DNA of 64,000 nucleotides from Candidatus Hydrogenedentales bacterium (GTDB lineage Bacteria > Hydrogenedentota > Hydrogenedentia > Hydrogenedentales > GCA-2746185): NCBI GenBank assembly GCA_038916785.1, contig JBCLBO010000001.1, positions 1,676 through 65,675 on the forward strand. Direction: 5' to 3'. Below are positions 47,411 through 51,254 of the stretch, piece by piece. The notes beneath the pieces are model-generated. The model did no database searches and was not told the origin of the DNA. It was given only the letters and a program-made list of their open reading frames with translations. The position numbers were made by a program, and so were the translations under genes. Every line of letters begins with the position of its first letter. Position 1 is the stretch's first letter.

Positions 47411-47415
47411 GGTTC

Positions 47416-47439
47416 GTAGCATCGGCCTCCGGCCGATGC
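47416..47439. repeat. REP family B copy (GTAGCATCGGCCTCCGGCCGATGC)
   Basis: GTAG head followed by a 9-bp stem hairpin. Same family as 8878-8976. Confidence 0.8.
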
Positions 47440-47689
47440 AGCGCGCACCCGGCGCGTTGCATTTTCATCGAATATTTCCCACTTCACACATATTTCCTCA
47501 ACCGTCGTCTGCTGAATCTCCCTTGTTCCGGTAATAACATACTTGACGCATCAATGCAACGAGATAGCAAGATAGAGAGTCTTTAAGTAGGGGAATCACA
47601 ATCGGGCCGTAATGTTCAGCTTTGGCACACTTGCGGAATAATTTGGGCGCACTTGAATTCCACACAGAGCGGCGTCTAAATTGTCAGGC

Positions 47690-47722
47690 AAAGTGATACA
47701 AAAGTGATACAAAAGTGATACA
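47690..47722. promoter_or_regulatory. Three perfect tandem 11-bp repeats AAAGTGATACA (candidate operator/iterons)
   Basis: Units lie at 47690-47700, 47701-47711 and 47712-47722, about 120 nt upstream of the SD-supported start of the Panacea gene. Confidence 0.4.
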
Positions 47723-47842
47723 ATGTACTACAGACGAAGTCTACCGGCATTTAGACCGGAGACGATGGAGACGTGGGCCATGACCAGCTTAACACGGTCG
47801 CAGGGGGCGGCTGGGGTCTTGGGTGAACCGGAGGCAGGGGTA

Positions 47843-48565
47843 ATGTCTACGCATGGACGAGGTGTGTCTGATTCAGGGGCTTGTTTTGATCGCCTTCGTA
47901 ATTTAATATTGTATGTGGCTCGCCAGAGCGAGGGGGACGAGCGGTTTGGTAGTACGAAGCTAAACAAAGAATTGTTCTACGTTGATTTTACTTCGTACAT
48001 CCGAACGGGGAAATCTGTAACGGGGGCTGAATATCGGCGTATCGAGCGCGGGCCTGCACCAACAGCCATGAAGCCTGTTCTTGATGCAATGGTGAGAGAG
48101 CAAGAGCTTGCTCTTGAATCGCGCGGATATTTTGGCTTTGGTCAGAAAGTACCTAGGGCGTTACGCGAGCCCGACACCTCTCTTTTTGCCGCGGATGAAT
48201 TGGCGCTTGTCCATGAGATTTTGGATCGGTTCCATCTCTTCAATGGCAAGCAGATTAGTAAACAGGCGTATCAGGATTTTGGTTTAAGTGACTACAGCGA
48301 GGGTGAAACGCTTCCGTATGAAATCGCCCTCGTTAGCAATGACGGATTTACTGAAAGAGAGATAAGACAGGCCCAAGCATTCGAGGATGAGTTGGTTGCT
48401 AATGATCGCGCTGGACGACCAAAATCGGCGTTGGGAGATCATAGAGTCGCACTTTTTTCGCGAATGTGTGCACAAGCATTGCGGCATCCACGACGAACGT
48501 ACCGATCAATACTTTCTGGACGGCGTGAAAAACAGGCTCGCGCACAATCCCTACATAGGGTTTAA
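47843..48565 (+). CDS. Panacea (DUF4065, SocA-like) domain antitoxin candidate
   Basis: FDRLRNLILYVARQSEGDERFGSTKLNKELFYVDFTSYIRTGKSVTGAEYRRIERGPAP matches my memory of the DUF4065 core. ATG at 47843 has GGAGG 9 nt upstream; the ORF track starts at 47723. The last ~59 codons are Arg-rich and overlap the next ORF. Confidence 0.7.
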   Translation: MSTHGRGVSDSGACFDRLRNLILYVARQSEGDERFGSTKLNKELFYVDFTSYIRTGKSVTGAEYRRIERGPAPTAMKPVLDAMVREQELALESRGYFGFGQKVPRALREPDTSLFAADELALVHEILDRFHLFNGKQISKQAYQDFGLSDYSEGETLPYEIALVSNDGFTEREIRQAQAFEDELVANDRAGRPKSALGDHRVALFSRMCAQALRHPRRTYRSILSGRREKQARAQSLHRV

Positions 48566-48722
48566 GTATCCACACTGGAAAACACGACTACTACGAACCA
48601 ATAGGGAGTCCGCCGGATGGCTCATGCCAATGGTCGTTCAGTATCAAATCGTGGACGACAAAAAGCGCATCGTGGAATTGATGAACTTGTTCCCGGCGAG
48701 CAAGAGCATGGGAATGCCTTAG
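48402..48722 (+). CDS. Candidate toxin partner (RelE/ParE-like pattern, unverified)
   Basis: WEIIESHFFRECV...RLAHNPYIGFKYPHWKTRLLRTN...VVQYQIVDDKKRIVELMNLF has a strand/helix pattern and a C-terminal vvYxIvDdxxxIxIlxi-type ending reminiscent of RelE/ParE toxins. The start is ATG at 48387 or 48402. Confidence 0.4.
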   Translation: MIALDDQNRRWEIIESHFFRECVHKHCGIHDERTDQYFLDGVKNRLAHNPYIGFKYPHWKTRLLRTNRESAGWLMPMVVQYQIVDDKKRIVELMNLFPASKSMGMP

Positions 48723-48865
48723 AGCGTTTCAAAAGCCTAGCTTCAAGGCTTATTACCGTCCCTAAGCGCGAGATTGACGAACAGGTGCGCAAGAAGAAGC
48801 GCCCGAAGAAAGCCTGACTACTTCTTCTTTCGCTTCGGCCCTCGCCCTGTAGACCGATCCACTAT

Positions 48866-49819
48866 TCAGATCGTCTGCGCTTCGCCCGTAAGTTTCTTGT
48901 AGGTCAGGCGCTTTCCAACTACGCCGCGAAGCGTGCCCTTGAACCGCTCGGAATCCGAGAGATCGCGATTGTTGTAGCGGTAGCTCTGTTCATCCAGGTA
49001 GCGAAACAGATGGAACGGCTCAACGCTGATATACGTACCTTTCAATCCGCGCTTGAGCAAGCTCCAAAAGTTTTCCATCGTGTTCGTGTGAATCTTTCCG
49101 TTGACGTAGGCTTTCGCATGGTCGATGGTCTTGTGAATGTATTCATCCCGCAGCGATTCATAGCTCGGTAGCGCATCCGTGTAGATCGTTGATCCGGCCT
49201 CGACATATTTGCGAACGCGCGGGTCAAGGTTCTTGCGTTGGATATTTTGGATTACTTCGGTGCGGACTTCTCCGGCGCGCTCGACAACGCCCATGACAAC
49301 AATCTTGCCAAATGAGCCGGTGTTCTTGCTCTTGCCCTTCTTGAACTTCGCAGCACGGCGCTTGGGGGACATGAACCGGGCCTTGCCGCCAATCAAGGTT
49401 TCGTCTACTTCCACTTCGCCGGAGAGTTTCGTAAACGTGCCGGTCTGCATCGCAAGGCGAATCCGATGGAGCATGAACCATGCTGACTTCTGAGTGATAC
49501 CCAAGTCCCGCGCCATTTCGTAAGAGCTAACCCCGTTACGGCAGTTGGAAATCATCCAGAATGCGACCATCCACTTATCAAGGCCGACGTGCGAATCCTC
49601 GAAGATCGTACCGTGGCGGACTGTAAACTGCTTCCGGCAGACCTTGCACTGGAACTTGGAGCGGGACTTGATGAACCCGATCTCGGTGGAGCCACAGTCA
49701 ACGCAGACCGGGCCATCGGGCCAGCGAAGGTCTACGATGTAATCATGGGTCACTTCGGGGTTTGAAAAGAACAGGATTGCGTCCCTAAGTGTCTTTGGCT
49801 CCGTGCCTTGCGTGTCCAT
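48866..49819 (-). CDS. IS1595-family transposase (zinc-ribbon + DDE)
   Basis: N-terminal zinc ribbon CVDCGSTEIGFIKSRSKFQCKVCRKQFTVRHGTIFEDS, HTH-like GVSSYEMARDLGITQKSAWFMLHRIR, and DDE region EVDETLIGG...YTDALPSYESL...ENFWSLLKRGLKGTY. Confidence 0.9.
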   Translation of the reverse strand: MDTQGTEPKTLRDAILFFSNPEVTHDYIVDLRWPDGPVCVDCGSTEIGFIKSRSKFQCKVCRKQFTVRHGTIFEDSHVGLDKWMVAFWMISNCRNGVSSYEMARDLGITQKSAWFMLHRIRLAMQTGTFTKLSGEVEVDETLIGGKARFMSPKRRAAKFKKGKSKNTGSFGKIVVMGVVERAGEVRTEVIQNIQRKNLDPRVRKYVEAGSTIYTDALPSYESLRDEYIHKTIDHAKAYVNGKIHTNTMENFWSLLKRGLKGTYISVEPFHLFRYLDEQSYRYNNRDLSDSERFKGTLRGVVGKRLTYKKLTGEAQTI

Positions 49820-50164
49820 TTGGCTAGCTCCTAGTCTTGAACTAGCCCCATTCTATCAGATAATTTATGATGTGTCAAGTATATTATCGCCCTTGTTCCG
49901 CGCCGCGCCAGTTCGGAGTTCCGCGTTCACGCGGCCGCTCTTCGCCGGAATGCCGCCTAAAGGCCGAACTCCGAACGCCGCGCGGCGGCTTCCCGCCGCC
50001 GACCCCTTGTTCCGCACCCGCCAAATACCCTGATTCCCCGACTTCGTCCACTGTGTCCACTGCGTCCACTTCGCCAAAAGCAGTGCAACAATCCGAACGT
50101 ATAGATAAGGACACTGAGGGAAACTGGAGGGAATTACCGCCGCAGGCACGCCACGATGAGAAAT

Positions 50165-51019
50165 CTACTCAAAGTCCAGACTACTCCGCTTCGGCGGCTC
50201 CGGTGCACCGGGGATCGGTTCGGAAAATTGCCGCACCAGTCCCTCCAGCGCGCCAAAGCGCACGAGGCGGAATCGCTCCGCGTATCGGTCCTCGCCGAGT
50301 TGATACAGCGAAGCCGTCTCCCGCGCCTGCTCCTTGAGGAAACGATCGAGCACCGGGCGCACGCCGTTCTTCATCGCGTCCTCCACGAGTTGCATCCGGC
50401 GGCCATAGGTCTCCAGGTGCATGCGGAATTGGTTCATCGCATTGCGCATCGCCGTCTGGTGCGCGGCAAGCGCGTCGATCTTCTTCTCGATGAACTCGGT
50501 GACGTCTTCGGCGTGGTTGGCGTGCGGCAGCGTCCGCCCGTAATACCACTTCTCACAGACCGCGTGCGGCTTGAGCCCGACCTCGATGTGTTCCGGGTGG
50601 TGCAGATCGAATTGCGCCACCCAGAAAGCCTCGGCGACCGCCCGCGCGACCACGATGTGGTCCATGTTGTCCTCGCCGACGCCGTCCGGGTCGAAGCTGA
50701 ACACCGCGTAAGGACGGTATTTGCGGATCAGAAACACCATCCGCTTGCGCATCTCGACATGCGAGAACTTCGACAGCGTGTCCGTCTGGTAATCGAGCTC
50801 CACGATCTCGGCCACGCCCAGGACCTTCGCCGCGGCGCGCAGCTCGTGATAATTGCGGATCGTCGACTCCGCCAGCTCAAGCCCGACCGAGTCCGTCGCG
50901 TCATCCGTCACGCGCACAACCACGACGCGCCAGCCTTCCGCCGCGAACTTCGCAATCGTCCCGCCGCAGAACGCTGTCGCGTCATCCGCATGAGGACTAA
51001 TCACCAAAGCCGTATGCAC
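50165..51019 (-). CDS. PIG-L/LmbE-family deacetylase
   Basis: LVISPHADDATAFCGGTIAKFAAEGWRVVVVRVTDD is the PIG-L zinc-binding signature. GTG start. Confidence 0.85.
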   Translation of the reverse strand: MHTALVISPHADDATAFCGGTIAKFAAEGWRVVVVRVTDDATDSVGLELAESTIRNYHELRAAAKVLGVAEIVELDYQTDTLSKFSHVEMRKRMVFLIRKYRPYAVFSFDPDGVGEDNMDHIVVARAVAEAFWVAQFDLHHPEHIEVGLKPHAVCEKWYYGRTLPHANHAEDVTEFIEKKIDALAAHQTAMRNAMNQFRMHLETYGRRMQLVEDAMKNGVRPVLDRFLKEQARETASLYQLGEDRYAERFRLVRFGALEGLVRQFSEPIPGAPEPPKRSSLDFE

Positions 51020-51254
51020 GGTTCGTCCCCCTCTACGAGGAGCATAACGGCGGAGGATGATTCAGACAAGATCACCACACCAGTGAAAGAGCGGTTAGAC
51101 AGGATTTACACGATTTACGAGATGAACGAATCTTAAAGATACCGTCCGACACCGCATTCAGCCCATGACCAAAATGCGCGCCGGCGCCATGCGTTTGCAC
51201 GGGGCTATTGTAGGAACCTATAGTCGGCCCGTCTACGAAGCTGCGGAGGCGCAA

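Follow-up and report, generated by a model that had tools for sequence, protein, structure and literature searches.

A probable transporter insertion sequence of the IS1595 family with a PanAT-type cargo in a Candidatus Hydrogenedentales genome

Introduction

In the genome of a Candidatus Hydrogenedentales bacterium, a stretch of 64,000 nucleotides (assembly GCA_038916785.1, contig JBCLBO010000001.1, positions 1,676 to 65,675 of the forward strand), hereafter the window, holds an IS1595-family transposase gene beside a Panacea-domain gene with inverted repeats on both sides, and this raises the question of whether these genes form a single mobile unit. In this study we conclude that positions 47530-49891 of the window probably form a complete IS1595-family transporter insertion sequence (tIS) whose cargo is of PanAT type. 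The tIS class, defined for the IS1595 family in 2009 as cited in PMC3129680 and PMC8496243, comprises elements resembling insertion sequences (IS) that hold passenger genes unrelated to transposition inside their inverted repeats (bioRxiv 10.1101/2021.05.26.445724). This definition describes what is observed here, with the putative antitoxin gene PanA and the open reading frame (ORF) named ORF2 placed between the left repeat and the transposase, and with a target-site duplication around the whole unit.

Boundaries and genes of the element

The features, in window coordinates, are as follows.

47530-49891: the IS1595-family element, 2,362 bp
47522-47529: left 8-bp target-site duplication CTTGTTCC, identical to 49892-49899
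47530-47553, plus strand: left terminal inverted repeat GGTAATAACATACTTGACGCATCA, which fits the clade consensus
47690-47722, plus strand: 11-bp repeat AAAGTGATACA in three exact tandem copies, ahead of the cargo genes
47843-48565, plus strand: PanA, a Panacea/DUF4065 putative antitoxin (Pfam SocA_Panacea)
48402-48722, plus strand: ORF2, 106 aa, the putative toxin partner (PanT), with a predicted RelE/ParE-like fold
48617-48817, plus strand: ORF3, 66 aa, a small basic protein with the core ..ERFKSLASRLITVPKREIDEQ.. and a Lys/Arg-rich tail
48866-49819, minus strand: IS1595-family transposase, 317 aa, full length (PF12760, PF12762, NF033547)
49850-49878, minus strand: promoter-like site for the transposase, with TTGACA in the right repeat, 17 nt and TG-n-TAGAAT
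49868-49891, minus strand: right terminal inverted repeat, reverse complement GGCGATAATATACTTGACACATCA
49892-49899: right 8-bp target-site duplication CTTGTTCC

The two terminal inverted repeats are identical at 20 of 24 positions, with a core of 20 nt at 90% reported by a repeat finder, and the longest string common to both junctions is CCCTTGTTCC. Because at the right end the first two C of this string belong to the element, as its terminal CC, the duplication is 8 bp long. The element is complete and structurally intact. Its G+C content of 48-54% differs from the 60-69% of the flanks, and the cargo, at about 50%, resembles the transposase part and not the host. Three genes, PanA, ORF2 and ORF3, occupy the plus-strand side, and the three tandem 11-bp repeats ahead of them are a candidate operator. 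An Rfam search of the region gave no match.

The transposase

The protein encoded at 48866-49819 matched the Pfam models Zn_ribbon_IS1595 (PF12760, E 1.8e-11) and DDE_Tnp_IS1595 (PF12762, E 1.3e-37, profile positions 1-153 of 153), as well as the NCBIfam model NF033547 with 180.9 bits against a cut-off of 75, in agreement with its earlier description as a zinc-ribbon/DDE transposase of IS1595 type. Residues C39, C42, C58, D139, D215, E249 and K256 are conserved across 62 members of the clade and the alignments of relatives span residues 1-316; with these cysteines and the D139/D215/E249/K256 set present, the transposase of the window is complete. Its amino acid identity reaches at most 59% to the transposases of the 80 genome loci described below and at most 39% to annotated plasmid-borne ones.

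The strong promoter-like site upstream shows 11 of 12 matches together with a TG extension, and the arrangement of TTGAC in the end repeat followed by a TAnnnT box is found throughout the clade. It may work as the promoter of the transposase, with its -35 box within the right inverted repeat.

Related elements and their cargo

A transposase search restricted to one genome per species returned 80 related loci, mostly in soil metagenome-assembled genomes (MAGs) of Acidobacteriota, Chloroflexota, Actinomycetota, Methylomirabilota, Hydrogenedentota and others. In nearly all 80, the end consensus GG[CT]AA[TC]AATATACTTGAC lies 50-100 nt upstream of the transposase start, and 61 also possess a matching distal repeat and an 8-bp duplication identical at 7 or more of 8 positions (8 of 8 in 55 of these). 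The same end consensus with an exactly abutting 8-bp duplication in 61 of 80 loci places the match of the window's ends and duplication to the family rule far beyond chance, and the boundaries of the element are thus independently confirmed.

The first-pass annotation of the window, made from the letters alone, had given coordinates for the ends, the duplication and the genes, and all of these are present at the positions named. It had proposed that terminal inverted repeats bracket cargo and transposase together, which the 24-nt ends and the recurrence of their consensus in related loci bear out, and that an 8-bp direct repeat flanks the element, which is correct in that CTTGTTCC is exact on both sides and a duplication of 8 bp is typical of the 61 relatives. 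It had also considered that the true ends might enclose the transposase only, or that the shared 8-mer might vanish once boundaries were taken from other copies; the family-wide comparison puts the ends around cargo and transposase, and the duplication survives.

The 61 bounded relatives measure 1,332-4,930 bp, and only one of them is shorter than 1.85 kb; the other 60 exceed this length and carry extra genes between the 3' end of the transposase and the distal repeat. Pfam matches among the 132 cargo ORFs of these relatives comprised DUF3800 (7), GmrSD, RelA_SpoT, MazF/PemK and HipA, along with PIN, HNH, GNAT, DNA methylase, ClpP and ParA-like ATPases, and the PADLOC candidates were PDC-S33, HEC-06, Orf5 and PDC-M03A. 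Many cargo ORFs of 260-310 aa had no match at all. The cargo slot of this clade, with ORF3 on one side and the left inverted repeat on the other, is very variable.

A Logan contig (L177) holds a further complete IS1595 tIS, with the repeats GGCACCGAACGGGTTGACTCACC and GGTACCGACCGGCTTGACTCACC and the 8-bp duplication ATTTGATA; its transposase is 48% identical to that of the window, and its cargo consists of a 46%-identical PanA and a 90-aa partner. Since L177 carries PanA independently, PanA is a recurrent cargo of IS1595 elements.

With regard to general layout, the commonest form among the 61 bounded elements is about 2.0-2.1 kb long, with a single cargo ORF of 250-350 aa convergent with the transposase. 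Among the clusters of cargo ORFs, one of 13 includes DUF3800 proteins, and those of 10 and 8 are without a Pfam match.

ORF3, a small basic protein beside the transposase

Clustering of the ORFs of the 61 elements disclosed a group of 50-90-aa ORFs adjoining the transposase stop and resembling ORF3, and both ORF3 of the window and the third ORF of a 657-bp contig (L096, described below) align with these small ORFs at the 3' ends of transposases. Members of the family, 50-75 aa long, display the core (E/P)F(E/Q)(R/K)F(E/D)..h..hL.VP(K/H).E and, after it, a tail rich in Lys and Arg. A hidden Markov model (HMM) built from 36 such ORFs matched in 51 of 62 elements, 36 of the 51 being training rows, and the matches include the cargo-less 1,332-bp relative L094; relative to the transposase, the match is convergent in 32 of the elements and co-directional in the other 19. 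Against 5.8 billion proteins the profile gave 3,429 matches, all of them 'hypothetical' and without a Pfam domain, and the three matches sampled on long contigs all lay stop-to-stop with an IS1595 transposase, downstream of a cargo ORF of 265-308 aa. ORF3 itself had no match in PDB sequences, Pfam or NCBIfam.

Two other explanations of ORF3, a frameshifted tail of ORF2 and a relic without a start codon, were dropped on the family alignment, in which the 50-75-aa members have variable N-termini. A kinship with the C-terminal tail of the transposase (ERFK...) was not significant (hhalign E 0.21).

Judged by these alignments, ORF3 is a core gene of the IS1595 clade outside the toxin-antitoxin (TA) pair, with a putative accessory role, and its family is apparently a second, so far undescribed gene of the clade; we know of no description of a conserved small basic ORF beside the transposase in the IS1595 family. 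The protein might regulate transposition or couple the transcription of the cargo to the transposase.

PanA and ORF2

PanA matched SocA_Panacea (PF13274) with 35.9-36.4 bits, above the gathering cut-off of 25.7, and the duplication flanks the whole unit, so that the Panacea-domain gene is indeed a passenger of the element, as had been suggested at first sight. That suggestion described a plus-strand module of two genes headed by the Panacea gene; the Panacea-headed passenger stands, but three genes are present, and the third belongs to the IS and not to the TA pair. The frame of PanA is open from 47723, and the ATG at 47843 sits behind GGAGG. Thirty-five homologues of about 180-190 aa were found, at most 46% identical and all with PF13274; similarity to them begins near the ATG at 47843, which is likely the start, and stops near residue 230 of the 280-aa ORF.

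For ORF2, a word-based homologue search came back empty, and among 1.84 billion representative proteins a single true homologue (P0036) was found, 50% identical over the full length with conserved blocks; its alignment sets the start of ORF2 at 48402. P0036 is encoded on L096 behind the C-terminus of a PanA and ahead of an ORF3 homologue, so the order PanA-ORF2-ORF3 is kept there, in one further instance. Kurata et al. (2022, PMC8832971) recognise PanAT loci by a partner within 100 nt and an architecture present in at least two organisms, and both are found here through the overlap of PanA with ORF2 and through L096. The partner ORFs of two PanA homologues (L177 and L179) share short motifs with ORF2.

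An AlphaFold model of ORF2 made from 4 sequences, namely ORF2, P0036 and these two partner ORFs, reached a predicted local distance difference test (pLDDT) score of 64 and a predicted template modelling (pTM) score of 0.57, with the order beta-alpha-alpha-beta-beta-beta. With this model, nearly all of the top 46 Foldseek matches were HigB2, RelE, ParE, PfiT or YafQ toxins, the best having E 2e-4 and probability 1.00, at template modelling (TM) scores of 0.5-0.63. ORF2 is accordingly predicted, with moderate confidence, to adopt a RelE/ParE-like fold. PanA and ORF2 most likely constitute a type II PanAT TA pair, in which ORF2 would be the toxin and PanA would neutralise it.

Related copies in the genome

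The genome is a draft of 168 contigs and about 86% completeness, which makes any copy number a lower bound; one full copy of the element was counted in it, plus related partial ones. Positions 59455-60258 of contig C12 hold the left end of a second related element with the repeat GGTAATAATATACTTGACGCATCA, cut by the contig end, and its similarity to the window element begins exactly at the proposed first base, 47530. The cargo of the C12 element, an 85-aa ORF and a retropepsin-like aspartic protease, is unlike that of the window. A 75%-identical IS1595 transposase adjoining tRNA genes lies at the start of contig C120 (15-1040); it could, but need not, represent the half that the C12 element lacks. 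Contig C33 contains a distant, split IS1595 transposase. The proximal repeat on C120 carries extra bases relative to the clade consensus. As for the host, GyrA encoded in the window is 70-73% identical to the GyrA of Candidatus Hydrogenedentota MAGs.

The target site

The context of the insertion is the following.

49890-50018, plus strand: host motif CCCTTGTTCCGC, a hairpin-bearing dispersed repeat of about 100 nt and a second copy of the motif (host DNA, outside the element)

The insertion site is intergenic, and CCCTTGTTCCGCACC recurs at 50004-50018; the early remark that the site lies within a repeated motif was accurate, and the motif proved to be dispersed throughout the genome, where CCTTGTYYCGC occurs 75 times against about 10 expected. 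The motif core is often preceded by TGTCAA..ATTT and often followed by GTGCAACAA..TATAGGG, giving a genome-wide composite of TGTCAA..ATTT.C, CCCTTGTYYCGCRCC, 10-25 nt, GTGCAACAA, about 12 nt and TATAGGG. It is also often duplicated around hairpin repeats of about 40-110 nt such as GTTCGGAGTTCCGCGTTYACGCGG...CCGCCTAAAGGCGGAACTCCGAAC, and these hairpin repeats are scattered over this genome as well as over genomes of the same genus and family. A same-strand ORF starts within 200 nt of 20 of 27 composite motifs, against 9 of 27 in the control orientation, which weakly suggests that the motif lies near promoters; the composite may be a form of promoter, a hotspot of small non-autonomous elements, or both.

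The element on C12 is inserted in the same 8-mer as the window element (GGAACAAG) but faces the other way, and 13 bases of the flanks (GCGCGGAACAAGG) are identical; in each case the IS occupies the distal of the two motif copies in a motif-hairpin-motif unit. Over the family, the duplications have the palindromic consensus C-T-A-A-T-T-A-G flanked by CC and GG, and the window site, CTTGTTCC preceded by CC and followed by GC, ranks among the best 1.3% of genome positions when scored with a matrix from 55 family sites. This matrix was rejected as the cause of the double insertion in the motif, as 45,330 genome positions score equally well.

From these observations a real local target preference is likely, resting on the two insertions. 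It is conceivable, if somewhat doubtful, that the shared target instead reflects chance, or the survival of insertions in harmless intergenic repeats, and not recognition by the transposase. The motif does lie in non-coding DNA, this genome offers two insertions only, and among relatives that share the end subtype the targets otherwise vary, with a resemblance to C(T/A)AATT(A/T)G. Yet, for all the 45,330 positions that score as well, both insertions fall in a motif with about 23 exact copies of the 11-mer and share their 13 flank bases in opposite orientations, and relatives in other phyla (e.g. L018, L020, L033 and L057/L085) also sit in locally repeated motifs.

In Acidobacteriota, L057 and L085 (from the same MAG), L049 and L083 display a common duplication, CCATTTCT or ..TTCT, with similar flanks (TTTCTAATC...GATTAGAA...), which suggests that these four are inserted into a host repeat too. 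Elsewhere in the window, a hairpin GTTCGTAGCATCGGCCTCCGGCCGATGC at 47413-47450, just downstream of a DoxX-like gene, is a dispersed repeat found in about 10 other places of the genome. On the other side of the element, a 326-aa plus-strand ORF (50156-51136) is fully antisense to a PIG-L-family gene (50165-51019, minus strand, Pfam E 1.7e-24), and the composite motif that precedes it, which is promoter-like, is directed into this antisense frame.

Discussion

Taken together, a tIS would have inserted into an intergenic host motif, of which 8 bp (CTTGTTCC) were duplicated. Its core would consist of the transposase, with the promoter -35 box in the right repeat, and of ORF3 at the 3' end of the transposase, and the variable slot between ORF3 and the left repeat would hold PanA and ORF2. 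This pair may stabilise the element in its host by addiction and/or add phage defence. For the clade as a whole we tentatively put forward a joint proposal: an undescribed second core gene for a basic protein of 50-75 aa (ORF3), a dedicated hypervariable slot that shuttles TA and anti-phage genes from one soil phylum to another (Acidobacteriota, Chloroflexota, Actinomycetota, Hydrogenedentota and others), and, in this genome, homing to a repeated, hairpin-flanked motif that probably lies beside promoters.

At subgroup level, the closest known IS1595-family tIS (Siguier, Gagnevin and Chandler 2009) are probably those of the ISNwi1 and 'ISNwi1+' subgroup of ISfinder. ISNwi1/ISNwi1+ elements have ends ggnnatTAT, an 8-bp duplication, a DDE-K motif and passenger variants of 1.75-4.75 kb. 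The window element has the ends GGTAATAAC and GGCGATAAT and the residues D139-D215-E249-K256, and the plasmid annotations of relatives read only 'IS1595 family transposase'. By its ends and D-D-E..K motif the element fits this description and is probably ISNwi1-like. This provisional subgroup placement is the first of several points that weigh against a complete tIS with PanAT-type cargo.

The other points concern the cargo and the mobility of the element. Two further homologues of PanA, encoded on long contigs, are not located in an IS, and no ORF2 homologue accompanies them. The pLDDT of the ORF2 model is modest, and an earlier model from 2 sequences found no fold match with Foldseek, for which reason the fold assignment is rated moderate. 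No second identical copy exists in the assembly, so that mobility and recency have to be read from a single copy; an empty site formed by the joined flanks was not found in 40 relatives, and the exact junction pattern is absent from Joint Genome Institute (JGI) metagenome contigs. The exact pattern of left repeat plus interior likewise had no match in metagenome contigs, and the PIG-L neighbour, a second route to an empty site, yielded no orthologue in the genus. A recent, single insertion is nevertheless plausible in view of the perfect duplication and of the element's G+C of about 50% against 60-65% in the flanks, and the element may still be mobile.

Several of the cargo's features would also fit the idea that it is a decaying or non-functional remnant, in which PanA has lost its stop, ORF2 is no toxin or goes unexpressed, and the whole is inert hitch-hiking DNA; we consider this unlikely. 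The frame of PanA runs 51 codons beyond the stop of all 11 aligned homologues, to 48565, the stop TAG of the L096 homologue aligns with the sense codon GCG, and the extension together with the 164-nt overlap of PanA with ORF2 could mean that the cassette is decaying. ORF2 matched no Pfam or NCBIfam model, those of RelE, ParE and HigB included, even at E <= 10, PADLOC gave no match, and a profile search of PDB sequences returned nothing relevant; moreover, very large databases contain a single homologous cassette. On the other hand, the three ORFs on the cargo side are all open, overlap between TA genes is common, ORF2 retains conserved blocks and 50% identity with its sole homologue from end to end, and the fold search points to RelE/ParE toxins. 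A chance composite, in which a complete IS on one side and an unrelated solo end on the other enclose a PanA module of host DNA, is very improbable and largely refuted, since, even with repeats that differ at 4 of 24 positions and a single copy of the unit in the assembly, the perfect 8-bp duplication encloses all 2,362 bp, the G+C of the cargo is that of the transposase part, ORF3 as a clade core gene lies between cargo and transposase as in relatives, the corresponding slot holds cargo in 60 of 61 relatives, and L177 independently carries PanA in an IS1595 tIS.

We therefore retain a complete IS1595-family tIS with PanAT-type cargo as the probable reading. It is an element of a known kind, a clean and fully bounded example, from a candidate phylum that has received little study, of a minimal transposable element with a putative TA pair on board; the parts that deserve most attention are the apparently undescribed ORF3 family, the variable cargo slot and the likely targeting of a repeated motif. 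The element alone is of modest interest, and the survey matters more broadly, as cargo, in many cases TA or defence genes, is present in nearly all members of a widespread soil clade. The finding supports the idea from work on PanAT that transposons drive the swapping of PanAT partners. If the proposals hold true, the ORF3-family protein would be a new IS accessory factor with thousands of homologues, and the clade would offer a simple, tractable model for the movement of defence genes on the smallest mobile elements.

Comparison with known systems

In common with the known IS1595 tIS, the window element has a zinc-ribbon and DDE transposase, repeats starting GGnnAT.AT, an 8-bp duplication and passengers inside the repeats, and the sizes in its clade, 1.85-4.9 kb with cargo and 1.3 kb without, agree with those of ISNwi1 and ISNwi1+. 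It differs from them in a transposase at most 59% identical and in the extra conserved small basic ORF.

ORF2 is like the RelE/ParE/HigB2 toxins (PDB 5JAA, 8A0X, 5CEG and 9G12) in predicted topology, in its length of about 100 aa and in its TA-like operon position, but it has no detectable sequence similarity to them and its model is of modest confidence.

The known partners of PanA include ParE and MqsR-like toxins, and many PanAT loci adjoin transposases (Kurata et al. 2022, PMC8832971). As in these systems, a Panacea/DUF4065 gene directly precedes a small partner gene here and overlaps it; unlike them, the putative partner comes from a near-orphan sequence family, and PanA has an unusual 51-codon extension.

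TA pairs also occur in transposons of the Tn3 family and have been proposed to stabilise them (Lima-Mendez et al. 2020, as cited in PMC8832971). The window element resembles these carriers in having a TA module inside a transposable element, and differs from them in belonging to another transposase family and in being much smaller. The cargo of Tn3-family transposons is placed beside the resolution site, whereas here it occupies a hypervariable slot on the 3' side of the transposase.

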